Sequence record: OR352954
Direction: 5' to 3' (one strand)
Length of the DNA stretch: 64,000 nt
Source: Escherichia phage AV124
The stretch's first letter is position 1, and each line of letters starts with the position of its first letter. The notes below the pieces were generated by a model. It saw only the letters and a list, made by a program, of their open reading frames with translations, was not told the DNA's origin and searched no databases. This document shows, piece after piece, positions 3-47,710 of the stretch. Made by a program: the position numbers and the translations under genes.

Positions 3-194
3 AAAGATCTTGATCTTATCCATAACGTGGCCTTTTTGATTAGCGAGCTTGAAGAATATGTTGACGAACTAGATCTGAGCATCTATGATGACTACAGTGA
101 AATGAAATCAGCACAAAAAGAAGTGCTCAAATTATTGAAAAATCTCAGACGAAGGAGAGAACATGAAATTCAACGTAGACGATTTGGTCGCTAA
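3..194 (+). CDS. 3' end of an upstream gene (partial), unknown function
   Basis: Open frame from window edge to TAA at 192-194; acidic, helix-like translation; overlaps start of next gene. Confidence 0.3.
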   Translation, partial: KDLDLIHNVAFLISELEEYVDELDLSIYDDYSEMKSAQKEVLKLLKNLRRRREHEIQRRRFGR

Positions 195-1125
195 AAAACT
201 GGTAACCAAAAAGACTTACACCGAAGGCCCGTTCGCGGGTCTTTCTGTGCTGAAGTATAAGAACAATGTGTTCTGGGATAACCTGTGGCATACTGACCCA
301 CGACTGCTTGAGTGCCGTGGCATGGTTGTTGATGCAGAGGACAACGTTGTTATCTGGCCTTTCACGAAGATCTTCAACCGCTTCGAGAATAACACGGATG
401 TCCCTCAGGACCAGTTGGTATGCGTACCTCGTAAAATCAACGGCTTTATGGCAGCAATGAGTATTTACAATGGGGAGGTGATTGTATCTACCACAGGAAC
501 ACTTGATTCTGATTTTGCACAAATGGCAAAAGACAAAATCATTGGCTCTATGCCTGACGGAATGCTTGACTATTTCGTGAAGAACGCTGGACCTTGCACA
601 CTTATCTTTGAGATATGTGATGATAGCGACCCGCACATCGTCGCAGAAGAAGCAGGTGCTTATCTGATCGGTTGTCGTGTTCATTTAAGTGGTGGTATGC
701 TCCCAGAATGGGACCTTGATAAGGTCGCAAATCGTTATGGGTGGAAACGTGCTGGTTGGGACAACATGCTCTTCAGCGATGTTGTTAAGGCCTCTCAAAG
801 TGTTAACCATGAAGGTTTTGTTGTTCGCGATGTTGACACCAATGAGCTATTACTGAAAATCAAGTCTCCACATTACCTTGCGAAGAAATTCCTGATGCGC
901 GGGGGTGATAACAAGTGGGACATGATCTGGGATAACCCGAAAGAGGCCAAGAAGCGTATTGACGAAGAGTATTACGAGTTGCTTGACCATATCCGCGAGT
1001 ATTACTCTAAAGATGACTGGGCTGGGATGGACTCTCAAAAACGTCGTCAGGTTGTTGAAGATTATTTTGCGATTGAAGACCTCTTTGATCGCGATAGTCG
1101 TTTTTACGTTGGAGTTCAAAAATGA
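163..1125 (+). CDS. RNA ligase-like covalent nucleotidyltransferase (Rnl family)
   Basis: AGGAG RBS; motif I KINGF (KxNG), motif IV EGFVV, motif V LLKIK in correct order. Confidence 0.5.
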   Translation: MKFNVDDLVAKKLVTKKTYTEGPFAGLSVLKYKNNVFWDNLWHTDPRLLECRGMVVDAEDNVVIWPFTKIFNRFENNTDVPQDQLVCVPRKINGFMAAMSIYNGEVIVSTTGTLDSDFAQMAKDKIIGSMPDGMLDYFVKNAGPCTLIFEICDDSDPHIVAEEAGAYLIGCRVHLSGGMLPEWDLDKVANRYGWKRAGWDNMLFSDVVKASQSVNHEGFVVRDVDTNELLLKIKSPHYLAKKFLMRGGDNKWDMIWDNPKEAKKRIDEEYYELLDHIREYYSKDDWAGMDSQKRRQVVEDYFAIEDLFDRDSRFYVGVQK

Positions 1126-1466
1126 TTGTCTGGCTTGACGATTTAAGAGACCCTAAAGACTACGGTTATCCTGATGCATTGTGGTTCAAGACCTCTCAGA
1201 AATTTATGGATTTTCTTGATAATCGGTCAAAGTTCTATCGTTATGTCACAGAGTGGCATTTCGACAATGACCTCGGTGAAGATTCAGAAATGGAGGGCTA
1301 TGACTGCCTGTTAGCCTTGGAAGAGAAGCTTGTGTATGGGAAACTTCCTGTGCATGATGCTAAACTCTATGTCCACACGTCTAACCCTTCTGCTGCACAA
1401 AAGTTCATGCTTGCAAAAGAGAGCTTCTCGAAGTATCGTATTACGATCTTGAGAAACAATTACTGA
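1122..1466 (+). CDS. hypothetical protein
   Basis: ORF with ATGA start/stop overlap to upstream gene. Confidence 0.5.
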   Translation: MIVWLDDLRDPKDYGYPDALWFKTSQKFMDFLDNRSKFYRYVTEWHFDNDLGEDSEMEGYDCLLALEEKLVYGKLPVHDAKLYVHTSNPSAAQKFMLAKESFSKYRITILRNNY

Positions 1467-1475
1467 GGAGAAGAG

Positions 1476-1883
1476 ATGGAAAAGACTCTGATTATCCTGC
1501 GCGGTGTGTCTGGTGCTGGTAAATCTACAGTTGCAGATATGCTAGCAGAATGTTTGTGGCCTATCTGTGAAGCAGATAAATTTCACTACACGGAAGATGG
1601 TGTTTACGACTGGAAACCTGAAAATATCCAGGCAGCGCATAAATGGTGCCAAGATCAAGTAAAGGAAATGATGGAATGGAAATTTCGTAAAATCATCTTG
1701 TCTAATACTTCTACCAGTGAAAAAGAACTGAAACCTTATCTTGATCTCGCTGCGGAGAATGGGTATCGTGTTATCAGCCTAGTGGTCGAGAACCGCCACG
1801 GGAATGATTCTATTCACAGTGTTCCGCAGGAAACTCGTGATGCTCAAGAGCGTCGTCTGCGTAACTCATTGAAATTACAGTAG
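1476..1883 (+). CDS. small P-loop kinase (polynucleotide-kinase-like)
   Basis: Walker A GVSGAGKST near N-terminus; RBS GAGGAG. Confidence 0.4.
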   Translation: MEKTLIILRGVSGAGKSTVADMLAECLWPICEADKFHYTEDGVYDWKPENIQAAHKWCQDQVKEMMEWKFRKIILSNTSTSEKELKPYLDLAAENGYRVISLVVENRHGNDSIHSVPQETRDAQERRLRNSLKLQ

Positions 1884-1893
1884 GAGGAAATAA

Positions 1894-2670
1894 TTGAGGC
1901 GTTTAATTGTTATTAGTGGCGCTGGTTTCTCTGCCGAGAGTGGTGTCCGTACATTCCGTACAGATACTGACTCCGGTAAAGCTCTGTGGGATGAATACGA
2001 CCTTGAGGAGGTTTGTAACATACACGCCTTCCGTGGTAACTTCTACCATAAAACGCACATGTTTTATAACAAGCGTCGTGCAGAGTTACCAACGGTACAT
2101 CCGAATGCGGCGCATCTTCGCGTGGCTGAGTGGTACAAACGTTATCCTGGGCAGGTTGTTAACATGACGACTAACGTTGATGACCTTCTGGAACGTGCGG
2201 GTGTCCCTAAAGAAGATACTCTTTACATACATGGTTATCTGAAAGAGATCCTTGTTAAAGATGCTTTCACCAAGAAGATAAAGGTTGTCGATATTGGTTA
2301 CGACCAAATTGATCCTGATGATTATGATTGGTGTAAACCAAACGTAATTTTCTTTGGTGAAAATGCCCCGGCGTATGGACCTATGTATGATACCTTAGAG
2401 TCCTTGACAAACCAAGATCTTGTAATTGTTGTTGGTTGCTCAAACACGGTAATCAACTTCAACTGGGAGTTGTTCCCTGCGGTTGTGCGGGGGACTAAAG
2501 TTGTTGTTGTCAATCCTGCTATTAGGTATGATGAACAAATGATGTATGAGAATGCGGGTGTTCTTGTATATCGTACCGGAGCTGTTGATGCCTTTAATAA
2601 TCCCGGCCTTATCAAGATAGTTGAGAATCACCTTGAAGGTAAGACACCATTGCAAAGCAAGGAGAAATAA
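1894..2670 (+). CDS. Sir2-family NAD-dependent deacylase / ADP-ribosyltransferase-like protein
   Basis: GAGFSAESGVRTFR (Sir2 GAGISxxSGIPxFR), NVDDL, IHG, PNVIFFGE motifs. Confidence 0.65.
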   Translation: MRRLIVISGAGFSAESGVRTFRTDTDSGKALWDEYDLEEVCNIHAFRGNFYHKTHMFYNKRRAELPTVHPNAAHLRVAEWYKRYPGQVVNMTTNVDDLLERAGVPKEDTLYIHGYLKEILVKDAFTKKIKVVDIGYDQIDPDDYDWCKPNVIFFGENAPAYGPMYDTLESLTNQDLVIVVGCSNTVINFNWELFPAVVRGTKVVVVNPAIRYDEQMMYENAGVLVYRTGAVDAFNNPGLIKIVENHLEGKTPLQSKEK

Positions 2671-3983
2671 TGCAACAAGTAAACAGTACACTGTACGCCC
2701 TTAATAAAGATGGTTCTTTCCAGTGTTGGAAGGTGTTTATTGCTGGTAATCAGGTAGTTGTAGAGTTTGGCAAGGTTGGTGGTAAGAAGCAACAAAAGGT
2801 TACCACCTGTGAACCGAAGAACGTTGGACGTTCTAACGAAACCACCGCAGAACAGCAGGCATTGGTTGAGGCGGTTTCCAAATGGGAGAAACAGGTTCGC
2901 CTTGGATATCGTGACGATACAAGCAAGCTTGAGCAGGAAGAGAACTTCTCCCCAATGCTGGCCCATGACGCAATTAAACGTTCAAAATCAATAGTTTATC
3001 CTGCATACGTGCAGCCTAAGCTAGATGGTGTACGTGCTCTGGTTACTCTTGATGCAGATGGCTTCCCACAATTCAATAGCCGTGGTAACAAACTGTATCC
3101 TGTACCGCTTGATTCTGAGTTGTCTGAACAGGTTAAATCCCTTTCTGAGCATTCCGGGTTTGACAAATTCGATGGGGAGCTGTACATTCATGGTCTGAGT
3201 CTGCAAAAGATTGTCGCTCTTGCTAAGAAGTGGCGTACACCAGAGCAGATCGAAGAAGAGATTGAAAAGGATTATCAGTCTGACCTGAAGCGCCATCAGA
3301 AAGCTATTGACAATGGGGAAGACAGTTGGAAAGATTTCGATGGTGATGTTTACTCTGTCGCAATCGAACCAGTTAAAGATGTTGATCGTTATGGCGGCTA
3401 TTCAAGCCTTGACCTAGAGTACCATATCTTCGACATTCCGTGTTCAAATAAACCTTGGATGATTAACGATGGGATTTCAGACTATACAGATAAGGAGTGT
3501 CGATACAAAGACCTTATGGACACTGACCACTTCACCTCTGTTATTAAAGCAGATAAAATAAATGTGGTCCAAGGGAATGTCTTTGACACTGAGGATGAGG
3601 TTAAGCAATCAATCGGACATTTTATGCAGCAAGGCTTTGAGGGTGCTATCATCCGAAATTTCAAAGGTGTCTATGAATTTGGTCAGAGATCTTCTGATCT
3701 CCAGAAATGGAAACTTTTCCAAGACGGTGAGGCTAAAGTCCTTGATTCTGTGGAAGATAAGAACGGTGAGGGTGTATTACTCTGCGAAGAGAAAGATGGT
3801 ACACGTTTCAACTGTAAAATGAAGGGAACCCACGCAGAGAGATCTCAGGAACGAATGCTCCTGCTGGTGGGTAAGTTTATTAACTTCACGTTCCAGGCTA
3901 GAACTGATGATGGTGTTCCTCAGTTTGCCATAGGCCAAAGCGTTCGTGAACTCGATACATTAACATGGGAACCTACTTATTAG
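2670..3983 (+). CDS. ATP-dependent DNA ligase
   Basis: Motif I KLDGVRAL, motif III FDGELY, motif IV EGAIIRN, motif V LQKWKLF. Confidence 0.8.
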   Translation: MQQVNSTLYALNKDGSFQCWKVFIAGNQVVVEFGKVGGKKQQKVTTCEPKNVGRSNETTAEQQALVEAVSKWEKQVRLGYRDDTSKLEQEENFSPMLAHDAIKRSKSIVYPAYVQPKLDGVRALVTLDADGFPQFNSRGNKLYPVPLDSELSEQVKSLSEHSGFDKFDGELYIHGLSLQKIVALAKKWRTPEQIEEEIEKDYQSDLKRHQKAIDNGEDSWKDFDGDVYSVAIEPVKDVDRYGGYSSLDLEYHIFDIPCSNKPWMINDGISDYTDKECRYKDLMDTDHFTSVIKADKINVVQGNVFDTEDEVKQSIGHFMQQGFEGAIIRNFKGVYEFGQRSSDLQKWKLFQDGEAKVLDSVEDKNGEGVLLCEEKDGTRFNCKMKGTHAERSQERMLLLVGKFINFTFQARTDDGVPQFAIGQSVRELDTLTWEPTY

Positions 3984-4038
3984 CGTATATAATGTCGGTA
4001 TAAATGATTCTTCTACACCAGTCTACTCAAATGGAAAC

Positions 4039-4574
4039 ATGGATGTCTATTACTCAAGATGGAAAGACATCCTTAAAAGATGCTATTCTGAAAGCTTTCA
4101 TGCAAACAACCCTTCCTACATTGGATGCTCTGTTTGTGAAGAATGGAAAACATTTTCTATCTTTAAGGCTTGGTTAGTAGGTTCTGGATTTGATGGAACA
4201 CAGGTTATTGATAAAGACCTTTTGTTCAGGGGAACAAATTGTACAGTCCAGAAACTTGTGTTTTGATTGATTCAGAACTTAACTCTTTTTTAGCGATTGG
4301 CGGTAGAGGTTCTCACTTGCCCCACGGGGTTGGTTTGCAAAGCGGTAAATGTGTAAAACCTTATACAGCAAAGATTAAGGACTCTGTTAAGACAGAGTAT
4401 ATTGGAAGCTATGAGACAGCAATGGATGCTCATAAGGCTTGGCAAAATAGAAAATATCAGGCAGCATGTAATCTTTCTTTAAGGTATGATGACCCAATTA
4501 GAGCATACATTGTAAACGCAGCAAATAGGATTTTAGAAGATATAGAAAACAATAGACAGACAAAGGAGATATAA
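4039..4574 (+). pseudogene. frameshifted AP2-domain homing-endonuclease-like gene (paralog of 21765..22349)
   Basis: ORFs 4039..4266 and 4239..4574 align end-to-end with the intact paralog; single-nt frame change near 4236-4245. Confidence 0.5.
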
Positions 4575-5035
4575 TGGGATTTTATCGTAAAAAACCTGTA
4601 GAGGTTGAAGCACATAAGTTTGACGGATCGTCAACCAGCGCAGGGCAGATCCATAATTGGATGGAAACTGGTGTGTGGAAGGATTCCGAAATCCACACTC
4701 GTGATTGTGGTCGTACTGTAGAGATAAAAACCCCAGAGGGGGTGGTTGTAGCCTCTGCTGGGGATTATGTAATTAAAGGGGTGGCTGGAGAATTCTATCC
4801 TTGCAAATCAGAAATTTTCCATGCAACATATGACCCGCTGGAAGACACTGATCGGGAACCTGGGAACTACCCAGCTAAAGCAATCCGTAAGGGTGATGAG
4901 ATCATGTTTTGCGGAAAGGTTTATACCGTAACGAATACTGGTGCGATGGGGGAGGATGTTATCCTGACTCTCGGCGATGGTTCCCAAATCCCTGTGCGCC
5001 CGGATACTCAAATTATCGTAACAAAGGCACAGTAA
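4574..5035 (+). CDS. hypothetical protein
   Basis: ORF, ATGA overlap with upstream ORF, RBS AAGGAG. Confidence 0.5.
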   Translation: MGFYRKKPVEVEAHKFDGSSTSAGQIHNWMETGVWKDSEIHTRDCGRTVEIKTPEGVVVASAGDYVIKGVAGEFYPCKSEIFHATYDPLEDTDREPGNYPAKAIRKGDEIMFCGKVYTVTNTGAMGEDVILTLGDGSQIPVRPDTQIIVTKAQ

Positions 5036-5036
5036 A

Positions 5037-5387
5037 ATGATCTGGTATTGGCTGGCGCTACTAGGCGCATCATTTGTAACAGGAGGCGGCATTTATACCG
5101 CTTACAGATTCCGAAAAGATAAGCTGGATGATTTCTTTGACTGGGTTGCTGGAAAGGTTAAACGTCTGCTGATCATCTGGGTATTTGTTATGGGCCTTGT
5201 TACGCTGGCCCTTACTGTCCCATTATGGAATACTATGACTTGTCAGTTCGACGGCTGGGCCGCGAATACAGAGACCAGTTATTCATGGTACAAATCAACC
5301 TGCCTGTATAAAAGCAAGACAGGGGCATGGCTACCTTTAGGTATCAGTCGTGATCAACCGCAAGGAGATGGTGATGCATCAAATTAA
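5037..5387 (+). CDS. membrane protein
   Basis: Two hydrophobic helices in translation. Confidence 0.45.
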   Translation: MIWYWLALLGASFVTGGGIYTAYRFRKDKLDDFFDWVAGKVKRLLIIWVFVMGLVTLALTVPLWNTMTCQFDGWAANTETSYSWYKSTCLYKSKTGAWLPLGISRDQPQGDGDASN

Positions 5388-5628
5388 AGAAAATACTGTA
5401 GATTTTGAAGCGCATATCTACGATTCTGCGATGAACGACAACTACAGATGGTCAATTCGTCCAGATCCTGATCTGCCAGGTTCAGTTAACCTTTCTTACA
5501 ATGAGTTAGCTCATTATGACAACCGTTCTCGCCAAGGTTATGAACAGCGGGGTATGGTAGGTTTCGATAAAGAAACTTGGGAAAAAATTAAATACGCCAT
5601 CGATGGTGTTTTTGAAAAAACAATTTAG
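5374..5628 (+). CDS. hypothetical protein
   Basis: ORF; AAGGAG RBS before internal ATG. Confidence 0.4.
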   Translation: MHQIKENTVDFEAHIYDSAMNDNYRWSIRPDPDLPGSVNLSYNELAHYDNRSRQGYEQRGMVGFDKETWEKIKYAIDGVFEKTI

Positions 5629-5636
5629 GAGATTTA

Positions 5637-6314
5637 ATGAAAGAAGCTTATGATACTCTGAATGCTATGCTGCGCCCAACCTCTCTTGTTAAGTATGCGA
5701 AACATGTTGTAGATTGGAATTCTATCGCAGCCTCTGCAAAGGGTGAATTTACCCCATTGGAAAAGCAGTGGGAGTTTGTAGGAGAGGAGTTACAAGAAAC
5801 CGTTACAGCATTAATCGAAAATGACCGTAAGGAAGTTGTTGATGGAGCGTGTGATTTGTTTGTTGTGGCGTCGTATGCTTATTGGTTGAGTAATAACTAT
5901 TCGCTATCCTCAGATAAATATTTAACTTATAATCCTGACCTTAAGTTTTCTCCTGGTAAAGCTTTGGATGCTTTTGCGAATGATGACTATGAGGGGATGC
6001 TTAAATTGAGCACAGCTTTGTTGTTTGGTCTTGATATGCAATTGCATAAGAACATGCATAGCGTTCTGGAATCTAATGATTCTAAATATCCAACACTTAG
6101 TGAAATTCAGTCTTTGCATAAAGACCTTGACTTGGCAAAAGCCCTTGAGGCAGAATGCACCTGTATCGAACAGCGTAATGGTGGACGCTATGAAGGTGTT
6201 CATTTCTCCATTGTTGATGAGAATATGAAAGAAGAGCCACGTGTCGTATTCTTCGACAAAGGCGGTAAAATCATGAAGCCAGGGACTTTCAAAAAACCAA
6301 ACATTATTGTTTGA
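5637..6314 (+). CDS. hypothetical protein, possibly MazG-like NTP pyrophosphohydrolase
   Basis: EFVGEELQE ... DGACDLFVV resembles MazG EExxE/D motifs; weak. Confidence 0.3.
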   Translation: MKEAYDTLNAMLRPTSLVKYAKHVVDWNSIAASAKGEFTPLEKQWEFVGEELQETVTALIENDRKEVVDGACDLFVVASYAYWLSNNYSLSSDKYLTYNPDLKFSPGKALDAFANDDYEGMLKLSTALLFGLDMQLHKNMHSVLESNDSKYPTLSEIQSLHKDLDLAKALEAECTCIEQRNGGRYEGVHFSIVDENMKEEPRVVFFDKGGKIMKPGTFKKPNIIV

Positions 6315-6339
6315 CAATCGTATCGGGGTCTGTATAATG
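6312..6339 (+). promoter_or_regulatory. sigma70-type promoter (TTGACA-N16-TATAAT)
   Basis: Perfect consensus hexamers. Confidence 0.55.
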
Positions 6340-6366
6340 ACCCCATCAAGACAAAAGGAGAAAGAA

Positions 6367-6591
6367 GTGGAAGAAAATATTGATTATTCTGAAATTGTTG
6401 CCTTGGCTAAACGCCTTAAAATGACCATCATGAATCGCGGGGCATCTTCCCGTCATGTTATCCGCTTCACAATGAAGCGTCGTTGGGGCGGCGTAAAGAA
6501 ATACGCTTATGAATGCACACTCGGAACTCTGGTAGCTCATGTAAACCAGATCGAGAGAATGGGCGGAAAAATTGTCGGAATTGACAATTAA
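6367..6591 (+). CDS. hypothetical protein (GTG start)
   Basis: AAGGAG RBS then GTG downstream of consensus promoter; track ORF 6307 start lies upstream of promoter. Confidence 0.4.
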   Translation: MEENIDYSEIVALAKRLKMTIMNRGASSRHVIRFTMKRRWGGVKKYAYECTLGTLVAHVNQIERMGGKIVGIDN

Positions 6592-6594
6592 AGT

Positions 6595-6622
6595 TTGACA
6601 AATAAAACTGAACGGTTATACT
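6595..6622 (+). promoter_or_regulatory. sigma70-type promoter (TTGACA-N16-TATACT)
   Basis: Consensus -35 and near-consensus -10, followed by AAAGGAG RBS and ATG 6654. Confidence 0.5.
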
Positions 6623-6653
6623 TACCACACTAAACCAAACAAAGGAGCAATAT

Positions 6654-7013
6654 ATGCCACGTATGCCAAAAATCAAAATCGAACTGATCACCTCTCTGCC
6701 ATCTGACCCGGTTCAGCGTAAGCGCCTGAAAGATAGCGTAACTGAAGTGGTTGATCTCCAGCGTCAAATCGCTGATCTGAAAGACCAGATCAAAGATATT
6801 CGCTCTGTGGAGAAAGAAACGCATAATATCTCTCCAAAATTCTTCAATAGTCTCGTGAAGCGAGAGTATGATGTTCGTTTCGAAGCAGAAAAGAAAACCG
6901 CTGCATTAGAGGCCGAAAAAGAAGTCTTCACCGAGGCAGATATTCTTTTTGGTCGTGGAACACCCAATGTTGCACAGACTGAAGCAGATGATGGTGCTGA
7001 GGACACTGAATAA
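6654..7013 (+). CDS. hypothetical protein
   Basis: ORF with strong RBS. Confidence 0.5.
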   Translation: MPRMPKIKIELITSLPSDPVQRKRLKDSVTEVVDLQRQIADLKDQIKDIRSVEKETHNISPKFFNSLVKREYDVRFEAEKKTAALEAEKEVFTEADILFGRGTPNVAQTEADDGAEDTE

Positions 7014-7213
7014 TGAAATACTACCTAAATGGTGTTGGCCTCTTTGTCTTCATCTGTGTCGTATTCGGGTTTGGTGTTCCAACTCTGGTTTCTGCCAAAG
7101 ATACAATCAGTGTTATTGGCGGGTTTGCCTTAGTCTTCACTGCCCCGGTTGTCGTATGGTACTGGTTGCGTAAGGTCTTCATTCCGAAGACAAGCGCTGA
7201 AGGAGATCGATAA
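7013..7213 (+). CDS. small membrane protein
   Basis: Two TM-like segments; ATGA overlap. Confidence 0.4.
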   Translation: MKYYLNGVGLFVFICVVFGFGVPTLVSAKDTISVIGGFALVFTAPVVVWYWLRKVFIPKTSAEGDR

Positions 7214-7377
7214 TGTTGCTAAATCTGAAGGCGGCAACTTGGGAAAAGTTGCAGCACTTGGCAAAGTCCAAAGGTAAGTCTGCGGCATCTTATGTTGCAA
7301 AAATCGTAGATGACCACGTTGATGAAAACGTAAAGACTGAGTATAAAATCAAAGAGGAGAAACAAACTGATGCTTAA
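7213..7377 (+). CDS. small protein, possibly ribbon-helix-helix-like
   Basis: 54-aa ORF not in track; KAATWEKLQHLAKSKGKSAASYVAKIV pattern; stop overlaps SPFH gene start. Confidence 0.3.
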   Translation: MLLNLKAATWEKLQHLAKSKGKSAASYVAKIVDDHVDENVKTEYKIKEEKQTDA

Positions 7378-8260
7378 GAATATCAAACGCGTAGTATTTG
7401 CTGGACTGATCGCTCTGGGTGCAATTGGTCTGACTGGTTGTGAACGTGCAACTGTTCCGGCGGGTTATGTTGGTGTTAAGGTTGACCTGTATGGTGATGA
7501 GAAAGGCGTTCAGCAGCAAGAAGTCGGCGTTGGTAAATATTGGTTGACCTGGAACGAAGAGATCTATCAGTTCCCGACGTTTAACCAGTTGAACAACTAC
7601 GAACAACCGTTCAACTTCCAGACCAAGGATTCCATGACGGTTACTGCAAAGATCGGTGTTGAGTATTACGTTGACCGCTCCAAGGTTACCAAGATCTTCC
7701 AGACCTACCGTAAAGGCGTCCAAGAGATTACAGATGTCAACATCCGTCAGAACATCTCTGATGCGCTGATCAAAGAAGCTGGTACGATGGATATTGGTAC
7801 ACTTGCTGGTGATGGTAAATCTCAGCTTCTAGACCGAGTGACCAAGACACTGAAGCAGAAACTTGACCCGGTAGGTATCGTTATTGTAAAACTATCTTAC
7901 ACTGATGACCTTGGTTATCCTCCTCAGGTAACTGCGTCCATCAATGCTAAGATCGAAGCTACTCAGAAAGCTCTGCTGCGTGAAAACGAAATCCAGCAGA
8001 CTAAAGCTGAAGCTCAGAAACAAATTGAAGCAGCTCGCGGTGAAGCAGAATCCCAGCGACTTCAAGCTCAGGGCCAGGCCGATGCTAAAGTAGCTCTGGC
8101 AAAAGGTGAAGCAGAATCCATCCAACTGCGTGGTGATGCTCTCCGTAAGAACCCTGAAATCATGCAACTGGAAGCGATCAACAAGTGGGACGGTAAAACC
8201 CCGACCATTATGGGTGGCAACGGTGCAGTACCTTTCGTAAATCTGCCAGCAGGTAAGTAA
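7370..8260 (+). CDS. SPFH/band-7 (prohibitin/HflKC-like) lipoprotein
   Basis: Signal peptide with lipobox LTGC; SPFH core then Ala/Gln/Glu-rich coiled coil. Confidence 0.7.
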   Translation: MLKNIKRVVFAGLIALGAIGLTGCERATVPAGYVGVKVDLYGDEKGVQQQEVGVGKYWLTWNEEIYQFPTFNQLNNYEQPFNFQTKDSMTVTAKIGVEYYVDRSKVTKIFQTYRKGVQEITDVNIRQNISDALIKEAGTMDIGTLAGDGKSQLLDRVTKTLKQKLDPVGIVIVKLSYTDDLGYPPQVTASINAKIEATQKALLRENEIQQTKAEAQKQIEAARGEAESQRLQAQGQADAKVALAKGEAESIQLRGDALRKNPEIMQLEAINKWDGKTPTIMGGNGAVPFVNLPAGK

Positions 8261-8263
8261 AGG

Positions 8264-8292
8264 TTGACAAAAGGCCCGGTGATTAGTATCAT
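8264..8292 (+). promoter_or_regulatory. sigma70-type promoter (TTGACA-N17-TATCAT)
   Basis: Hexamers upstream of AAAGGAG RBS and ATG 8323. Confidence 0.45.
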
Positions 8293-8322
8293 CGGGTATC
8301 TACTTACAAAAGGAGATACACA

Positions 8323-8517
8323 ATGATCCGCACAAAAATTCTTATCGCAGCATTGCTGCTATCTTCTCCGGTATTCGCGACTGTAAACACTCTTGATTTG
8401 GTTGATGAATACACCGACGGAAGTTCTAAAGTCTGCATCTACAGCGACGGTAATCGCACAGAATCTGTTCTGAAAGAAGGTGCTGGTTCTTGTCCAAGTA
8501 AGAAAACATTTCATTGA
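8323..8517 (+). CDS. small secreted protein
   Basis: N-terminal signal peptide MIRTKILIAALLLSSPVFA. Confidence 0.45.
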   Translation: MIRTKILIAALLLSSPVFATVNTLDLVDEYTDGSSKVCIYSDGNRTESVLKEGAGSCPSKKTFH

Positions 8518-8521
8518 GGCA

Positions 8522-9031
8522 ATGATGCGAGTAACTGATAAATACGTATTCTTCTTCACATACCGGGATATGTTCAGTAATCACTACCGCCAAGTTATTC
8601 CTATTCGTTGTGGTGGTTACGAGTTTTTTACTGTAGAACATTACATGATGTTCCAGAAGGCAATGCTCTTCGATGACAAAGAAATTGCTTCCCGCATCGC
8701 TACGGTTGATAACCCGAATGAGGCCAAAGCTCTTGGTCGTCAGGTAAAAGGTTTCGACAACAGCGTCTGGGAAGAGAATAGAATGGATATTGTGACTTCA
8801 GGCCTTGTATTGAAAATGAAGGCCAACAGGTCTGTTCTGGAAGCGGCGCTTGGGCATCGGGATGCTGGTCGTAAGTTTGTGGAAGCCTCCCCTTATGATG
8901 CCATCTGGGGTGTTAAATTAAACGAATATGACACACGTATCGATGACCCAACCAACTGGCGGGGTTTGAATCTTCTCGGTGAGTGCTGGGAACGAGCTAT
9001 TGATATTGTTGTTGCTGCAACGTGGAGGTGA
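8522..9031 (+). CDS. NADAR / YbiA-family protein (predicted ADP-ribose N-glycosidase fold)
   Basis: FSNH, TVEHYMMFQKAMLF, PNEAKALGR, DAIWG motifs colinear with YbiA family. Confidence 0.6.
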   Translation: MMRVTDKYVFFFTYRDMFSNHYRQVIPIRCGGYEFFTVEHYMMFQKAMLFDDKEIASRIATVDNPNEAKALGRQVKGFDNSVWEENRMDIVTSGLVLKMKANRSVLEAALGHRDAGRKFVEASPYDAIWGVKLNEYDTRIDDPTNWRGLNLLGECWERAIDIVVAATWR

Positions 9032-9470
9032 TTTGAAATTAGAGATTGAACTAGTTCCAAAGACCGCGTGGTTTACTAATCTCCGATCTCGTCTCCCCAA
9101 AGCCCAGTGGGATGTTGTCAGAAAGAAGTGTTATGAGAAGGCCAATTATCGATGTGAAATCTGCGGGGGTAAAGGAACAAAACACCCTGTTGAATGCCAT
9201 GAGAAGTGGAATTTCGGAGACGGTAAGATAACTCTGATAGGTCTAATCGCGCTATGTCCTTCCTGTCATGAAGTCAAGCATATTGGTTTGGCAGGGATCC
9301 GTGGGCGGGGTGAAATTGCCCTTCGTCACTTTATGAGAGTGAATGAAGTGAGTCGCCATGTGGCAGAGAAATATGTTAAGGAAGGGTTTGATTTGTATCA
9401 TGAACGAAGCAAGCGCGAAAAGTGGGAATTGGATGTCCGGTATTTGGACGAGTATTTGAGTAAAGATTGA
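8979..9470 (+). CDS. HNH endonuclease
   Basis: CEICGG ... HPVECHEKWNF ... CPSCHEVKH zinc-finger HNH motif; start uncertain. Confidence 0.6.
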   Translation: MSAGNELLILLLLQRGGDLKLEIELVPKTAWFTNLRSRLPKAQWDVVRKKCYEKANYRCEICGGKGTKHPVECHEKWNFGDGKITLIGLIALCPSCHEVKHIGLAGIRGRGEIALRHFMRVNEVSRHVAEKYVKEGFDLYHERSKREKWELDVRYLDEYLSKD

Positions 9471-10012
9471 GAGGGCTAGTGGGTGATCGTGAGATTGAAG
9501 ATTTAAGGAGATGCCTTACATACGACCAATCAACCGGAATGTTAAGATGGAACAGTCGTCCAAGAGAGGATTTCAAATTCGATTGGACGTTCGAAAATTG
9601 GAATTCGAAGTGGGCTGGTAAGGAAGTAGATAGCATCGGAAATACAGGTTATTATCGCTTCTCTCTTAACTACAAGAGATATCTTGCACACAGAGCTATT
9701 ATAGCCATGACATACGGTTATTGGCCTTCTGTAGTAGATCACCTAGATGGTGACAAGTTGAACAATAGACTTAGTAATCTAAGGGCAACCACCCAGGCTG
9801 TCAACATGATGAATAAGTCAGGCTACAAAAACAATACCTCTGGTGTTACAGGAGTACACAAGAGAAAGGATAATGGTAAATATTCTGCATCGGTAGTCTT
9901 AAATGGCAAGAGAAAACATCTTGGCACTTTTGACACTATTGAAGAAGCCATTCGTGTTAGAGAAGAAGAACTTTCCAAGAGGGGGTTCTCCTCCTCTCAT
10001 GGAAGTTTCTGA
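9467..10012 (+). CDS. HNH homing endonuclease with AP2 domain
   Basis: HR...VDHLDGDKLNNRLSNLR HNH_3 motif then AP2-like GVTGVHKRKDNGKYSASV...LGTFDTIEEA. Confidence 0.65.
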   Translation: MRGLVGDREIEDLRRCLTYDQSTGMLRWNSRPREDFKFDWTFENWNSKWAGKEVDSIGNTGYYRFSLNYKRYLAHRAIIAMTYGYWPSVVDHLDGDKLNNRLSNLRATTQAVNMMNKSGYKNNTSGVTGVHKRKDNGKYSASVVLNGKRKHLGTFDTIEEAIRVREEELSKRGFSSSHGSF

Positions 10013-10026
10013 AAATAGGGGGAATA

Positions 10027-11148
10027 TTGGGTTATCCATACGATGAAAATTGGAAGAGTAAAGTCACGAAAGACTGCGTATTAGCTTTGGATCTCGACCA
10101 GACATGCTTTGTATCAGCCGCTGGTGCTGAAAAGAGGACGATAAAAGCAACACATATCAAAACAGGCAGGACTAAAATCTTCCGCAACAGAACAGAATTC
10201 TGGGGTTCCACCAAAAGGGTGGTGGGTGGGTGGTTGAAAGACCAGAACGCCAATATGGAGGTGAAGGCAAAAGCTGAAGGCAGGGAGTTTACTCCTTGGG
10301 GTCGTGATGATTTCCTCATCGAGGACATTCAAACCCCTGAGCCTGTGGAGAACTGCCTTCATATCCTGAAGACAAAGATCAATGCTATCTTTGAACACCT
10401 TGAGATGGAAAGCAATACAGGGATGGGTGTACTTGGTGGTGAGGGTAACTTCCGCCTTATGCTCCCAGCTCCAGAACGTTATAAGGGTAACCGTGAGGAT
10501 ACATTACGCCCACTCCTTCTTCAGGAAACAAGGGATTATGTTACCCGGAAGTATAACGCTAAGGTGATTAATGGTGTTGAGGCAGATGACTATCTGTCTG
10601 TTCTTGCCTATATGGGGTGGGAGAATTACCAGAAGACCGGGAAGTTCAACTACATCGTGGCATCGTTTGATAAAGACCAGAAAGGAAACCCTGGGCTTAT
10701 CTTCGACACCATGCGCGATTCAGAAGAGAAGACATGGAAGCACCCGATTCCTATGTTGATCGATGATTCGATGGGAGAAATCTGGATGGAAGGTAACAAG
10801 GTCAAGGGATGGGGACGTAAGTTCTTCGGTTACCAGATGCTTTGCGGGGACAGCTCAGATAACATCAAGCCATACCAGTGTTTTGATATTGCTGGACGTT
10901 TCGGTGATACGGCGGCATTCAACCTGATCGGACACCTTCAGGATGAGAAATCCATGTGGCAAGCGATCATTAACCAGTATAAAACCTGGTTCCCGAACGG
11001 TGTTGAGTTTACTTCGTGGGACGGCACACAACGGAAAATGAGTGCAGGCCAGTGGGCATCTATCATCTTCCAGATGGTCTACATGAAACGTTCTGCAAAT
11101 GATAAGACAACCCTTTCAACAGAGCTGCGTCGTGTGGGGGTTATATGA
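10027..11148 (+). CDS. FEN-type 5'-3' exonuclease / flap endonuclease
   Basis: VLALDLDQ, GVEADDYLSVLA, CGDSSDNIKPY motifs of 5' nuclease family. Confidence 0.55.
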   Translation: MGYPYDENWKSKVTKDCVLALDLDQTCFVSAAGAEKRTIKATHIKTGRTKIFRNRTEFWGSTKRVVGGWLKDQNANMEVKAKAEGREFTPWGRDDFLIEDIQTPEPVENCLHILKTKINAIFEHLEMESNTGMGVLGGEGNFRLMLPAPERYKGNREDTLRPLLLQETRDYVTRKYNAKVINGVEADDYLSVLAYMGWENYQKTGKFNYIVASFDKDQKGNPGLIFDTMRDSEEKTWKHPIPMLIDDSMGEIWMEGNKVKGWGRKFFGYQMLCGDSSDNIKPYQCFDIAGRFGDTAAFNLIGHLQDEKSMWQAIINQYKTWFPNGVEFTSWDGTQRKMSAGQWASIIFQMVYMKRSANDKTTLSTELRRVGVI

Positions 11149-11164
11149 TAACCGGAGGAGGGAT

Positions 11165-11488
11165 ATGATGATCGATAACTTAATCATGCAGGCAGTTATG
11201 AGGGATGCTGAGGCGCTGGCTGTTCCCAGCGTCAAGGGTAAATTCTTAGTCGCCACAGGATTGTGGCGCATGGTTGAGTCTGGTGATGATTGCTATGTGA
11301 TTTTCACGGATGACTATACGGATCCGAATGTTGCATTCACCGTGTTGCTTCTGGATGATTGCGAGCTGGTAGAAGGTGAGAAGCTGTTGATGTTAACAAG
11401 CGTTTTGCTAGACACTCAAGAATTCTCCCTGGTTGTGTTCAAGGACCAAAATGACTCGGAGGCAACCGATGAAGCTGATGTCGGTTGA
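11165..11488 (+). CDS. hypothetical protein
   Basis: GGAGGAG RBS before ATG 11165. Confidence 0.4.
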   Translation: MMIDNLIMQAVMRDAEALAVPSVKGKFLVATGLWRMVESGDDCYVIFTDDYTDPNVAFTVLLLDDCELVEGEKLLMLTSVLLDTQEFSLVVFKDQNDSEATDEADVG

Positions 11489-41994: not shown

Positions 41995-42022
41995 TGACGT
42001 AAACAGTCAGCCCTGATATAGT
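41995..42022 (+). promoter_or_regulatory. sigma70-type promoter (TTGACG-N16-TATAGT)
   Basis: Hexamers just after terminator, reading into the non-coding region. Confidence 0.4.
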
Positions 42023-42029
42023 CATTATA

Positions 42030-43855
42030 CGCCAAATCTCCTGAAGCGGGAGGATACAATCACCACCCCTGCGTGAAAGGTTGCACATCCCATTAACACA
42101 CATAATATGAAGGGTCTCCCCGATATGTCGATAAAACACCATTTCATAAACACATTGCCGTAACGTGTCGATGCCATAAACATTACGGTGCGAAGCACTT
42201 TGCCAAAGGCAAAAACCTCCGGTGCTATAAATATATCGCCTTGGGCGATTAGCCAGAGGCTAACCCGTACACGGGTAAATATATCGCGTAAACAGGCCCC
42301 TGTTTTCCCCGTATAACCACCCCTTCCCCCCGTGGGGAAATCAAAACATACCCCCTGCCGAAAATATCACTTGCCGAAAAATATCATGGCTTGGTCCTTG
42401 GGTAAAAAATATTGTATTCGCACCATCTGCGGTGTTAGACGGACAGCTCCGGGCGTCAACTATCTTTACGGATCTTTACAAAATATCATGGGCAAGGTCG
42501 ATCCGGTTCCCGGTTCCTCGGGGCCTCTTCAGGCATGATAGTTACTTGCCGAAACTAATAATAATTGGGTGTGTCAGATAGCAAGCTTATGGTTTGCCAG
42601 CTTAGAGCACGATTTGCTATTGACTTGTTTATATTTATATGAATTACACCATTTAACATAAAACACGTTATACGCACTGACCAACAACGCATAGCAGACT
42701 AATAATGCCCCAATGTTACCAGTGTGACGCATAGGACAGCCGCTTCAGGTCATTACATGGTGTGACTGTTACTGTGGTGATAGTTTCATATGTGATTATT
42801 CATGTTTTAGGGTTGTTTTGTGAATGAGACGACGAATGAGAATCATTATTATTTCGATTTCGAATTCAATTTCGAAATGAGAATCATTCCGCAAATATAA
42901 ATATTTTGTAAATTTATAAATAAAAGCTTGACGAGGGAAGAGAATCGTGTTTAGCAATACATACTCTTTGAGCATCATTATCATTTGCGACTAATTCCCA
43001 TAAACCCTTGCTACGCAAGGGATTGATAGATATTTTCGATAATAAAAACACTTGACACTTCAGATAAAATCATGCTCAAAAACAAGCCTTTTCTCATAAG
43101 ATACGATCATCATTCTAATGGTTTGTCAACCATTAAACACGAATTAATTTGATTAAACTGCTAATTGTTTACAGGGTTTACTATCATCAGCGACACAATA
43201 ACACAATGCCCTTCGGGTTGTTTTCGCCACGGAAAACAATGTCCAGATTGACCAAAGGGGTTTTGTGAATCCCCTTTATCTGGACACAATAACACTAGGG
43301 CGATCAACGATAGTTGATCGGTGTTATCGTGGCGATGTGATAAAGTTTCATTGCTAATCATTACAGATGTAATGATAATATACTGTGATAATTTCGTCCT
43401 TGATCGTAGCGTCTACGAGCCACGATAACGCGAACGAGAATGCGATTTGTTCGCATTTGAGTTACCCTAGTGTTATTGTGTCGCTCGCTCCGCTCGCGCC
43501 ACTCCCCACGATTCGCGAACGAGAAATTTTATTGACAGAAAATGATTTCTATGCTCATAAAAAGCCAGTTCACACAATGAGTTAGATGAGGAAAGTTATC
43601 ATTATAGTGATTTATGCTCATATTCACTTCCAGTGCATAGAAATTCATGATTTATTCAGTTAATAACATGCGTTATTAATTAGGTGGGGTTGTGGGGTGA
43701 AAAGCCAGGACCGACACACAATTAAACGCAATATAAAGCGTTTTGAGCGTGGTTATCGGTTACCCTCATCATGGTATGTCTTGTGTTAGATCTCAATTAT
43801 GCACTTTTTTGCATAGCGGCGGGGCCGTGGTGTGGGTTGTTTATGGTGTGGATCT
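42030..43855. other. ~1.9-kb non-coding, palindrome- and repeat-rich region (candidate origin / regulatory region)
   Basis: No convincing ORF; numerous direct repeats, palindromes and nested inverted repeats. Confidence 0.5.
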
Positions 43856-43857
43856 GC

Positions 43858-43885
43858 AAAGAGAAAAGCCAGGTAAAAACCTGGC
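43858..43885 (-). terminator. rho-independent terminator for leftward block
   Basis: gccagg-taaaaa-cctggc hairpin; U tract on minus strand. Confidence 0.55.
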
Positions 43886-44142
43886 CTTTGTGTGATTGTC
43901 TTATGACTGGCTAGCCATATTGTTTTAGATAGTTTACAGCGGAAATTATTGCTTGTGCTCGGCTGTACTCTTCGCCGTTCACACGATAGCGCCGCGCGCC
44001 TTTATGGCACTGGGTGATCATAACCTGGATTATTCCATCCATAACATAGAATGCTTTACTTACGAATAAAATCATCTGATACTTTGCAACCGTGATCCGT
44101 GGCGTATGTTATCGCGTCATCAATTTTTAACATGTCACAACC

Positions 44143-44355
44143 TCATTCATTGATTAGTTTAAATTCCGCTTCAGGGTGATAAAGATCAGCCATATAGCGC
44201 ATTTTGTAATAGAAAGATACTTCCACAATGTGAGGCGCTTCGATTTCTATTTGTGTGATGAGAACGCTACCCGGCTTAAATCCTGGGGCGATGTCCGGTA
44301 ATTCGATAATCATTCCGCCTTTTAAATCTTTCGCTTTTACAGTTCCCATGATCAT
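44143..44355 (-). CDS. hypothetical protein
   Basis: ORF. Confidence 0.45.
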   Translation of the reverse strand: MIMGTVKAKDLKGGMIIELPDIAPGFKPGSVLITQIEIEAPHIVEVSFYYKMRYMADLYHPEAEFKLINE

Positions 44356-44585
44356 TAGCCTTTTTTACGTTTCATTACTTTGATCGCTTTTATGCCTTTT
44401 TGTTCGAAAAATTCCGGGCTTCGCAATTGTGCGGCACTGCTACGGCTTTTTACCTTAGTAGACAATACACCATAATAGCGCCCGTCATCATACTGACCAA
44501 TAAAATAAAAATCGTTTACGCCATATTTTTCATCCCCTGCTTTCTGGATGATTTCGGATAACTTGTCAATACTAATATTAATCAT
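44355..44585 (-). CDS. hypothetical protein
   Basis: ORF. Confidence 0.45.
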   Translation of the reverse strand: MINISIDKLSEIIQKAGDEKYGVNDFYFIGQYDDGRYYGVLSTKVKSRSSAAQLRSPEFFEQKGIKAIKVMKRKKG

Positions 44586-44633
44586 AATTGCTTTACCTCA
44601 AAGGATAGCGGGGCGGCTAGCGCCCCGGTTTGA

Positions 44634-44963
44634 TTATTTGTTAAGCTCTTTATATTCAGCGATCCAGCGGGTAAAAATCTCATACTGTTTTTGTGCTGCT
44701 TTCGCTGTTTTGTGAGAGATAACAGTTATATACCAGCAATTTCCTAAAACATAACCGGATGAATGATAAACCCACGGATATTTCGGATCGATCTCTTTCA
44801 GTTCTTTTTGACGTTCTGGGGACTCGCTCCAGACGTGAGAGACAAAATCAACGGCAGTATAACGGGGAACTTCAAGCGGGACACGCTGACCGAAAGCGTC
44901 AAACTTAAAATTGTGCGACTCTAAATGCTTGTCTAAAAAGGTGAAAAATTCTGATTTTGTCAT
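44634..44963 (-). CDS. hypothetical protein
   Basis: ORF. Confidence 0.45.
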   Translation of the reverse strand: MTKSEFFTFLDKHLESHNFKFDAFGQRVPLEVPRYTAVDFVSHVWSESPERQKELKEIDPKYPWVYHSSGYVLGNCWYITVISHKTAKAAQKQYEIFTRWIAEYKELNK

Positions 44964-45210
44964 TTCCGTTTACCTCGTCAAGTTGTTTTCGTTTGTTTGC
45001 CCTACGAGATAAATAATAATATAAGCGGGGATCGCTGTAAATAGCTCTTTACGTATCTTTACATTACTGTCGTTGTTGAGAGTAATTCTCATTACCGGAA
45101 TAGCGGGCACCTCCGGTGGCTTTCCTCCGGTATCCATCGTTGCCGCTTCAAAAAAGAATAGCAAAAACCAGGACCGAAAGCAAGCCCTAGAATTGTAAAG
45201 ATTTTGCCTA

Positions 45211-45678
45211 TCATACCAGGCCGGATCGCTTCGCCTTTGCAATGTCTGAATATAATTTCCTGAAGTATGCCGGGCCTCGCTCGTTTACTCTCACATATTC
45301 ATCACGCGCCGCCAACTGGTGATCGTCGGGTAATAACCCATGATAACCACTGCTAACAACGGCAATCCGCTTTTTGTTGCAGTCATAGTAAACATATGAA
45401 CCATCGGCTAGATAAATTGTGCAGTTCTGCCGGATGTAGGGTATCAAATACGCGTTGCCCTGGTGCCGGATTTTGTAAAGCGCCATTTGTCCATTGTAGA
45501 TCCGGCGGACGTGATAAGGGTCATTGATTGCCTGGTGAATGTTTTCCTTCCAGGCCTGGCGAGCGTTGCCAACATTACGGATCAGCGCTTCCACCTCTGG
45601 GATCACGACGTTAGCACGGGCGGCGGCTTTTGCCTGGTCTGATAATTCATCGTAATAAAACATTCGTACACTAATCAT
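45211..45678 (-). CDS. hypothetical protein
   Basis: ORF. Confidence 0.45.
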   Translation of the reverse strand: MISVRMFYYDELSDQAKAAARANVVIPEVEALIRNVGNARQAWKENIHQAINDPYHVRRIYNGQMALYKIRHQGNAYLIPYIRQNCTIYLADGSYVYYDCNKKRIAVVSSGYHGLLPDDHQLAARDEYVRVNERGPAYFRKLYSDIAKAKRSGLV

Positions 45679-45824
45679 TTTTTAATCCCCATGAAAGGAA
45701 AGCAAGCCAGATCGGCGGGGCGCAAGTGGTTAACACGTCGCCAGCCTTTTGGCGTTTCAACAAAAACGCGGTTTTCAATCCAGTGATAAATTTTACCAGA
45801 TCGCATATTGAGAAAACGTATCAT
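45675..45824 (-). CDS. small protein
   Basis: 49-aa ORF not in track; ATGA overlap with downstream gene. Confidence 0.3.
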   Translation of the reverse strand: MIRFLNMRSGKIYHWIENRVFVETPKGWRRVNHLRPADLACFPFMGIKK

Positions 45825-45873
45825 TTGCGTTTATCCGTAAAAGTTGCCCCGGATCGCCGGGGCCTGGTGTACA

Positions 45874-46644: not shown

Positions 46645-46751
46645 TCTGTTTTACCTCGATTTGTGGGCCGTCGCATCATTGCCGCCCTATACATTAAATA
46701 TAATAAAAGTCGCTCACGTTTGCAAGCGACTTTTTAGATTAATTTTCTCAA

Positions 46752-47075
46752 TTAGTTAGCACGGAAAACATCGTTTACAATAGCAGTTGTAAACATCCAG
46801 ACCAGATCCGGGGTGGTTATCGGCAGGCTGTCAGCCTGTTTTATTGTTACTCCGCTTCTTTCAAGAGTGTAGGCGATAAAATGACGGTTTTCAAGTTTTC
46901 CACTATGTGATTGAATAGATTTTTCAGTACGGATCAGGACGGTTAAACGGTCCGCTTGTTCGCTGTCATTCTCATGACAAAACACTAACATGGTTTTTTC
47001 TCCCTGGCGATTAAAGTCACAATTAACATTATCGTTAACATTTTCCAGAAAGAAAAATTTGTTTGCCTTTTCCAT
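46752..47075 (-). CDS. hypothetical protein
   Basis: ORF. Confidence 0.45.
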   Translation of the reverse strand: MEKANKFFFLENVNDNVNCDFNRQGEKTMLVFCHENDSEQADRLTVLIRTEKSIQSHSGKLENRHFIAYTLERSGVTIKQADSLPITTPDLVWMFTTAIVNDVFRAN

Positions 47076-47443: not shown

Positions 47444-47453
47444 GTTAACCGCC

Positions 47454-47696: not shown

Positions 47697-47710
47697 GGCC
47701 CCGCTATTGA

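Follow-up and report, generated by a model that had tools for sequence, protein, structure and literature searches.

A zinc-less sirtuin encoded beside the RNA-repair genes of Escherichia phage AV124

A distinct clade of phage sirtuins was linked to RNA repair by Iyer, Burroughs, Anantharaman and Aravind (2022, Viruses 14:1977; PMC9503650), who described three types of gene neighbourhood. In type 1, which occurs in jumbo phages, the sirtuin is accompanied by 2H, Nudix-cREC and PIN components. [quoted passage not shown] A KptA-like mechanism of 2'-phosphate removal was put forward by the same authors as a prediction, and our search of the literature yielded no experimental study of any phage sirtuin. 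Here we consider the Sir2-family gene located at positions 1894–2670 of a stretch of 64,000 nucleotides from Escherichia phage AV124 (sequence record OR352954), referred to below as the window, where the gene set is the same as that of type 2.

The linkage to RNA-repair genes is the most informative feature of this locus, and its interpretation is already in print (PMC9503650). To that account we add the recurrence of NADAR or NADAR-like neighbours, the existence of similar cassettes lacking a sirtuin, and the near absence of active-site remodelling. On present evidence we lean, with less than even confidence, towards the sirtuin providing a step in phage RNA or tRNA end repair that consumes nicotinamide adenine dinucleotide (NAD+) and resembles the reaction of KptA/Tpt1, to which it is unrelated by descent.

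The sirtuin, its active site and its relatives

The open reading frame (ORF) at 1894–2670, on the plus strand, encodes a sirtuin of 258 amino acids (aa) belonging to the zinc-less phage clade PHROG 2162, an assignment drawn from the ORF itself, Pfam, PHROG and CobB matches, sequence alignment and an AlphaFold2 model. SIR2 (PF02146) is its only Pfam match, scoring 79.8 bits against a cut-off of 24 (E = 3.3e-22) and extending over profile positions 1–178 of 180. PHROG 2162, "Sir2 (NAD-dependent deacetylase)", aligns over residues 1–254 with profile positions 10–276 of 277 (E = 1.8e-110), and the best solved relative is Escherichia coli CobB (1s5p, E = 5e-19). There was no equivalog-level match to the curated CobB models of NCBIfam, all of which scored below threshold, the best at 110.9 (cut-off 243) and 91.6 (cut-off 320). 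The ORF encodes a genuine Sir2-family sirtuin and a chance match is excluded. This agrees with the initial annotation, and the non-Sir2 Rossmann family that it had named as the alternative was not borne out by the profiles.

All the sequence motifs that had been cited earlier, namely GAGFSAESGVRTFR, NVDDL, IHG and PNVIFFGE, are present in the protein, and they lie on the plus strand together with further characteristic positions. The NAD-binding motif GAGFSAESGVRTFR spans residues 9–22 (1918–1959) and is followed by Y58-N-K-R61-R62 (2065–2079), the anion-binding pair of the class III sirtuin type, equivalent to Y92/R95 of CobB and Y102/R105 of SIRT5. TTNVDD, residues 92–97 (2167–2184), is the counterpart of TQNxD and carries the catalytic N94 and D96, with Thr93 in place of the Gln; the longer TTNVDDL extends to residue 98. 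IHG occupies residues 112–114 and includes the catalytic His113-Gly114 (2230–2235), corresponding to H147 of CobB, such that both the catalytic His and Asn, for which a check had been advised, are intact as H113 and N94. KPNVIFFGE, residues 148–156 (2335–2361), forms the substrate-channel or FGE loop, and the GxS...N of the Rossmann domain is represented by G181-C-S183 and N207. Residue equivalences to CobB were taken from a HMMER alignment together with a joint alignment, and an index offset of 39 recovers the published CobB numbering.

Conservation of these positions among phages is extensive. In 29 diverse phage homologues G9-A-G11, F21-R22, R61-R62, N94 and H113-G114 are invariant and S16, Y58 and D96 are nearly so; V151, F153-F154, E156, G181, S183 and N207 are also invariant or nearly invariant. 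The wider comparison drew on 76 viral loci, annotated records and metagenomic contigs, and the Sir2 proteins of the window and of 81 phage loci fell into 23 clusters at 70% identity. F57-Y58-N-K-R61-R62 aligns with FYNARR of CobB, and the Tyr/Arg pair is retained in 87% or more of the phage clusters. To judge from the sequence, therefore, Tyr58 and Arg61 constitute class III (CobB/SIRT5-like) features, and the enzyme is intact and probably active. It should bind NAD+, release nicotinamide and pass the ADP-ribose to an oxygen nucleophile held in an anion-recognising pocket.

The main structural departure concerns the zinc module. The four-Cys zinc ribbon had been noted as looking incomplete, which is correct, and in fact the loss is complete, with none of the four ligands remaining. 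The protein contains only three cysteines (C41, C147 and C182) and no CxxC, V121 occupies the position of the CobB zinc ligand C155, and a four-cysteine structural zinc ribbon is absent. The former ribbon module, residues 115–147 (2236–2334, plus strand), nevertheless keeps a beta-hairpin with D-I-G-Y that is modelled with a predicted local distance difference test (pLDDT) score of 93–96. Nineteen of the 23 phage clusters have two or fewer cysteines in the ribbon region and no CxxC pair, whereas the nearest relatives, at 35–45% identity, keep CxxC...IGY...CxxC; the zinc-less proteins retain the D-I/V-G-Y hairpin. The model suggests that the hairpin scaffold survived and that the metal ligands alone were lost, and the phage sirtuin, by its sequence, falls in a phage-dominated clade lacking the structural zinc site. 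Zinc loss represents a variant within the sirtuin family and is no bar to membership. Occasional canonical-type bacterial sirtuins without zinc have been noted in silico, and one bacterial chromosomal example of a zinc-less canonical-type sirtuin was found here.

Other systematic changes are limited to the replacement of Gln by Thr in TQNxD and of GTS by GCS. Zinc loss co-varies with the former: among representatives, which are not phylogenetically independent as counts, zinc was combined with Gln in 68 and with Thr in 7, and its absence with Thr in 31 and with Gln in 12. Clade-specific remodelling of the active site was considered as a sign of a changed substrate and set aside, the Thr93 and GCS changes, which co-vary with zinc loss, being too little to indicate a new one. 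Domain fusions were equally uninformative as a functional clue, ten longer relatives holding only SIR2 or unrelated WG/RHS repeats.

Structure prediction, which had also been recommended, gave the same picture. The AlphaFold2 model (pLDDT 87.9, predicted template modelling score 0.86) has a sirtuin fold with CobB, Sir2Af1 and SIRT5 as its best matches in the PDB, at template modelling (TM) scores of 0.75–0.84, and all 50 of the top 50 Foldseek matches were sirtuins (E down to 8e-18). The KptA/Tpt1 family (PF01885), of the ADP-ribosyltransferase (ART) superfamily, was not indicated either by sequence or by fold, the structural neighbours all being sirtuins. The phage sirtuin thus shares with CobB and SIRT5 the fold, GAGxS, FR, NxD, the catalytic His, the FGE loop and the Tyr/Arg pair, and it differs from them in the missing zinc ligands, the Thr at the Gln of TQNxD, a C-terminal extension of about 50 aa and the RNA-repair context.

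The Sir2 fold with its NAD+-binding capacity is also common to the defence SIR2 effectors ThsA, DSR1/2, SIR2-HerA and SIR2-pAgo and to SirTM, some of which lack zinc, and phages do counter NAD+-depleting defences. One could envisage, therefore, that the protein acts as a NADase, as a decoy or as another counter-defence factor directed against Sir2-, TIR- or NAD-depletion-based immunity, in a lineage that carries the NAD+ salvage genes Nampt and Prs. Unlike the defence proteins and SirTM, the phage sirtuin has no PADLOC match, no sensor domain and no Macro partner and it groups with the canonical deacylase-type sirtuins. Moreover, destroying NAD+ would oppose the phage's own salvage genes, and the conserved residues of the substrate pocket argue for a real second substrate. 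We regard a counter-defence function as very improbable, and a decoy or defence-type Sir2 was rejected given a single-domain protein with similarity to none of the families of PADLOC-DB (0 families). Among the functions listed in the initial annotation, the counter-defence decoy consequently finds no support in a protein of the CobB/SIRT5-like type, while the protein-modifying enzyme is retained among the options weighed below.

The gene starts at a TTG codon (1894) that is credible because a Shine-Dalgarno sequence AGGAGG (1882–1887, plus strand), overlapping the stop codon of the preceding kinase gene, lies ahead of it with a 6-nt spacer and because the 29 aligned phage homologues all share the N-terminus MRRLI(V/F)(I/V)SGAG. 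Antisense ORFs within 1894–2670 are short and unsupported. In comparisons with relatives at 73–77% nucleotide identity, 93–96 codon differences are synonymous and 45–57 non-synonymous (94 and 45, respectively, for an example pair at 77%), and the Sir2 gene is therefore maintained by purifying selection.

The first 6 kb of the window are 92–97% identical in nucleotide sequence to Mydovirus phages (Raoultella phage Ro1 and Klebsiella phages BIS47, KB57 and VLCpiM5b), all of which have the gene annotated as Sir2 or NAD-dependent deacetylase, and the protein is 98% identical to the copies of Ro1 (gp137) and NDO71. Homologues were detected by tblastn in 995 phage records, with protein identities of 78% for PVP-SE1, 62% for T5, 55% for rV5-like phages, 54% for phi92 and 42% for KVP40-like vibriophages, and among 1.84 billion cluster representatives there were 3273 relatives at E<=1e-3, of which 39 reached E<=1e-30. 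Members of PHROG 2162, including T5p100 of T5, Ro1 gp137, phi92 gp038 and the KVP40-type "Sir2/CobB", share the zinc-less ribbon and TTNVDD with the window copy and show no difference of substance from it. This is a widespread phage gene which has already been annotated, and the gene, its family and its neighbourhood are all known; the novelty suggested for it earlier does not hold, since annotated copies exist in Ro1, BIS47, KB57, T5, phi92 and KVP40-like phages. Sir2, cREC and Rnl sequences of rV5-like or T5-like character, at 55–63% identity, were also present in "Campylobacter phage" (128–137 kb) and "Listeria phage" (2.7 kb) records, which would appear to be enterobacterial phage sequences that were mislabelled or entered as contaminants.

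Gene neighbourhoods in the window and in other phages

In the window the sirtuin gene forms part of a compact cassette, on the plus strand, which begins with an Rnl1-type RNA ligase (163–1125; Pfam RNA_lig_T4_1, PHROG 562). The end of this gene is overlapped by the start of a gene for a cREC protein, carrying a cyclic-phosphate processing receiver domain (1122–1466; Pfam), which is followed by a P-loop kinase of the AAA_33 family without a phosphatase domain (1476–1883; Pfam, with a weak match to a polynucleotide-kinase PHROG), the sirtuin, and an ATP-dependent DNA ligase (2670–3983; Pfam, PHROG) whose ATG overlaps the TAA stop of the Sir2 gene as TAATG. The sirtuin had been placed between an RNA-repair-like pair and the DNA ligase; the flanks were given rightly, although no conclusion was drawn from them, and the pair is a trio of Rnl, cREC and kinase. 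Because of the ribosome-binding site and the overlapping stop and start codons, the five genes look like one co-transcribed and translationally coupled unit, located in an early gene block. A promoter scan gave 19 sites compared with 17.4 in shuffled sequence, and with no excess over shuffled sequence the operon boundaries are only suggested.

Downstream, on the same strand, are a MazG-like nucleotide pyrophosphohydrolase (5637–6314; Pfam), a component listed for the published sirtuin neighbourhood, and a NADAR-domain protein of the ADP-ribose glycohydrolase family (8480–9031; E = 1.1e-34), 5.8 kb from the Sir2 gene. The latter is possibly a partner of the sirtuin or, alternatively, an independent anti-DarT counter-defence. 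No tRNA genes are present in the 64-kb window. In Raoultella phage Ro1, the region just before the point corresponding to the window's first base (300–11200 of the Ro1 locus) carries a tRNA cluster, Nampt, Prs (ribose-phosphate pyrophosphokinase) and a calcineurin-like phosphoesterase, the last immediately upstream of the RNA ligase. Rnl, cREC, the kinase and MazG together with Sir2 at 163–6314, and the phosphoesterase upstream in Ro1, make up the type 2 neighbourhood. A Macro-domain partner was found neither among the scanned neighbours nor in the Ro1 annotation within 12 kb on either side.

Neighbours were then compared across the 23 clusters over 8 kb on either side of the Sir2 gene, the search profiles being derived from window and T5 sequences. 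In five of the clusters, all from related myoviruses, Sir2 is accompanied within this distance by Rnl, kinase, phosphoesterase and MazG, and cREC is present in three of these, including that of the window. The RNA-repair phosphatase HAD_SAK_2, to which T5p103 belongs (Pfam E = 4e-20), lies near Sir2 in five clusters (the T5-like clusters and three others) and in one marine phage, and a phosphoesterase of the HAD or calcineurin type is found in 17 of the 23. An unrelated phage contig (L082) has the order RlaP, a nucleotidyltransferase of the "RNA repair pathway", Sir2 and NADAR, with Band_7 nearby. Nampt lies directly upstream of Sir2 in one context and a NadR-like NMN adenylyltransferase directly downstream in another, and a bacterial Sir2 homologue adjoins a Metallophos gene. 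In T5-like phages, two tandem DUF7415 proteins (T5p104 and T5p105; 7651–8481 in locus L001) always follow the Sir2/HAD_SAK_2 pair, in 32 loci, and the DUF7415 pair persists without the HAD gene in two clusters.

In one relative Sir2 overlaps the start of the gene for the peptidyl-tRNA hydrolase PTH2. This translational coupling, together with the tRNA-repair context, could be taken to favour deacylation of RNA-linked amides, for example of N-acetyl-aminoacyl-tRNA produced by the GNAT toxins TacT/AtaT, but it is a single context, with no precedent and no pointer in the sequence, and the idea is a speculation to which we give hardly any weight.

A second kind of neighbour emerged from Hena1-like Erwinia phages, where a 162-aa ORF without a Pfam match lies between the kinase and Sir2 genes (7302–7790 in L037 and 7079–7564 in L054), filling the slot held by cREC in Mydo/rV5-like phages. 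The phage family to which it belongs, unannotated and 67 clusters in size, is also represented in Proteus phage Myduc, and the family profile matches the NADAR structure 8bau (E = 6.6e-5). Its AlphaFold2 model (pLDDT 96.6) has structural matches only to YbiA/NADAR proteins (2b3w, 8bau and 8bat), and the protein is probably a divergent enzyme of the NADAR fold. cREC and the NADAR-like protein appear interchangeable beside Sir2, and both families are predicted or known to process ADP-ribose derivatives. The recurring partners of Sir2 comprise, therefore, two sets, one concerned with RNA or tRNA end repair and the other with processing of ADP-ribose derivatives and regeneration of NAD+.

Such neighbours also raise the prospect that the sirtuin is an ADP-ribosyltransferase which modifies RNA or DNA ends, bases or protein, the adduct being reversed by NADAR, cREC or a phosphoesterase as for SirTM-Macro and DarT-NADAR. 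In three architectures a NADAR or NADAR-like gene adjoins Sir2. NADARs have been proven to remove ADP-ribosylation from guanine by hydrolysis (PMC11543638, PMC11833690), and some sirtuins, of the SirTM class, are ADP-ribosyltransferases (PMC9503650). However, the protein keeps its catalytic His and a pocket of the deacylase type, a Macro partner is missing, the NADAR gene of the window is 5.8 kb distant, and phage NADARs have a demonstrated and independent role against DarT1, being reported to neutralise the DarTG1 defence (PMC11257639). It is, moreover, not obvious what a lytic phage would gain from a toxin-like writer among its early repair genes, and we consider this activity unlikely.

Phages that encode KptA itself are also known. 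KptA was found in 98 phage records, from jumbo phages of Erwinia, Dickeya and Klebsiella and from Clostridioides phages, and among the records listed there was no Sir2 carrier, a non-overlap compatible with the two being alternative solutions to one problem.

Some further features of the window may be mentioned. A Band_7/SPFH protein (7370–8260; E = 1.5e-21) is encoded beside the NADAR gene, and the trio of Band_7, NADAR and Sir2 is common to the window and the unrelated contig that carries RlaP. Sigma-70-like promoter matches occur downstream of the cassette on the plus strand at 6311–6338, 6595–6622 and 8264–8292, one matching at 12/12 positions and two at 11/12. An HNH homing-endonuclease gene is split between ORFs 4039–4266 and 4239–4574, the intact Ro1 protein being 178 aa long; by tblastn, Ro1 residues 1–65 and 62–178 fall in different frames of the window, which places a frameshift near 4233 and indicates either a pseudogene or a sequencing error. 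GC skew turns negative at about 42 kb and positive again at about 58 kb, which probably reflects a gene block encoded on the opposite strand at about 42000–58000.

RNA end repair and lysine deacylation

In sirtuins and in Tpt1 alike, an oxygen of the substrate attacks C1'' of NAD+, and the ribose 2''-OH, activated by a His, then attacks in turn and carries off the acyl or phosphoryl group as a 1'',2''-cyclic species. The KptA-like step published by Iyer et al. (2022), which we tentatively favour, would build on this shared chemistry. Host metal-independent RNases would cut tRNA or mRNA to leave a 2',3'-cyclic phosphate and a 5'-OH, the kinase would phosphorylate the 5' end, the cyclic phosphate would be opened by cREC or the calcineurin-like phosphoesterase, and the RNA ligase would seal the break. 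An oxygen of the leftover 2'-phosphate could then attack C1'' of NAD+ in the sirtuin active site with departure of nicotinamide, whereupon His113 would activate the 2''-OH of the ADP-ribose and the phosphate would be removed as ADP-ribose 1'',2''-cyclic phosphate. Clearance of this by-product might fall to cREC, NADAR, MazG or phosphoesterases, and recycling of the nicotinamide to the phage Nampt and Prs.

The proposal likens the sirtuin to KptA/Tpt1 by analogy, in the NAD+-dependent removal of an RNA 2'-phosphate and in the kinds of partner, an RNA ligase and processors of cyclic phosphates or ADP-ribose. The two differ in fold, KptA having the unrelated ART-superfamily fold, and in charge, KptA being basic with an isoelectric point (pI) of 9.4 and the phage sirtuin acidic with a pI of 5.7, within a range of 4.7–6.5 for the 23 Sir2 clusters. 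Net charge was not kept as evidence against binding of RNA, because the RNA and DNA ligases of this phage are just as acidic. Of the models considered, the KptA-like one alone would explain why rare neighbours that act in RNA repair and in cyclic-phosphate or ADP-ribose processing recur in varied arrangements, and it is on this ground that we prefer it, short of an even chance. In its fuller form, which we hold a shade more cautiously, the protein would be the first sirtuin to act on nucleic acid, an NAD+-dependent RNA 2'-phosphotransferase or remover of terminal 2'/3'-phosphates that replaces KptA/Tpt1 in phage tRNA repair, with cREC or NADAR-like proteins clearing the by-product and Nampt and Prs regenerating NAD+.

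Several observations weigh against the KptA-like reading. The active site, with its FGE loop, hydrophobic channel and Tyr/Arg pair all kept, is indistinguishable from that of a lysine deacylase, and no clade-specific conserved basic residues were seen in alignments of the phage homologues. A phosphoesterase-Rnl-kinase cassette lacking both Sir2 and cREC occurs in Pseudomonas phage Amme-3 and Vibrio phage F88, and healing and sealing therefore do not need Sir2. In Amme-3 (L098) this cassette is accompanied by an HD_4 phosphohydrolase, a DNA ligase, Prs and Nampt, and the kinase is of the AAA_33 family in both Amme-3 and F88 (L099). The Rnl family was detected in 663 phage records, of which 175 are from Pseudomonas phages, and Pseudomonas lies outside the ten commonest genera of the Sir2-carrier records. 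T5-like phages, the largest carrier group, are without this RNA ligase, and among records of Salmonella phages 14 have Rnl as against 289 with Sir2. In phi92-like phages Sir2 lies far from cREC and Rnl, in KVP40-like phages no recognisable RNA-repair partner was found within 6 kb of it, and in several jumbo phages it is not beside recognisable RNA-repair genes; the immediate Sir2 neighbours in the phi92-like, KVP40-like and jumbo clusters mostly had no Pfam matches. cREC, for its part, is found with RtcB and no adjacent Sir2 in Proteus phage Privateer. Strict co-occurrence of Sir2 with Rnl or with cREC was accordingly rejected, given Rnl carriers devoid of Sir2 (Pseudomonas and Vibrio phages), Sir2 carriers devoid of Rnl (T5-like phages) and, in Privateer, a cREC gene with no Sir2 beside it.

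The phage KptA loci that were inspected (RAY, FBKp24 and phiCD211) gave no profile match to Rnl, cREC, kinase, HAD, phosphoesterase or MazG, such that a parallel architecture around phage KptA genes could not be confirmed, and the host carries its own kptA. There are, in addition, two general cautions. Early-gene clustering makes neighbourhood evidence weaker in phages than in bacteria, timing alone grouping nucleic-acid enzymes, and most of the myovirus clusters share ancestry, so that independent associations are fewer than the raw counts.

Many of these points would suit an ordinary CobB/SIRT5-like NAD+-dependent lysine deacylase, a deacetylase or desuccinylase acting on host or phage proteins and, for example, reactivating acylated enzymes of metabolism or translation or ligases, with the neighbouring genes for NAD salvage and ADP-ribose processing merely supplying the enzyme and clearing its products. 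All the closest relatives in sequence and structure are lysine deacylases, and the catalytic residues and those of the acyl-lysine pocket are conserved throughout, including the class III pair Tyr58/Arg61, whose counterparts in SIRT5 and CobB bind succinyl and malonyl groups. The nearest zinc-containing relatives occur in ordinary bacterial chromosomal contexts, the repair cassette exists elsewhere without Sir2, the T5-like carriers have no RNA ligase, and adjacency to Nampt or NMNAT would suit any consumer of NAD+. A deacylase would, however, leave unexplained the recurrent linkage to cREC, HAD_SAK_2, RlaP, Rnl and PTH2 in different architectures. The protein scores under all the NCBIfam CobB cut-offs, it has lost the zinc module required by canonical deacylases as well as the active-site Gln, and hosts, as is generally known, already encode CobB. 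Lysine deacylation is thus a possible function, itself doubtful and yet nearly as likely as the KptA-like reaction.

The sequence feature itself adds nothing new. Its interest lies in the reaction catalysed by a strongly conserved sirtuin that some thousand sequenced phages possess, the model phage T5 among them. Amme-3 and F88 provide natural sirtuin-minus comparators. If the protein is a plain deacylase, phages would reset host protein acylation. If the KptA-like prediction is true, sirtuin chemistry would extend from proteins to RNA, and phage tRNA repair would possess an NAD+-dependent branch, bearing on phage survival of anticodon nucleases and of NAD+-targeting immunity.

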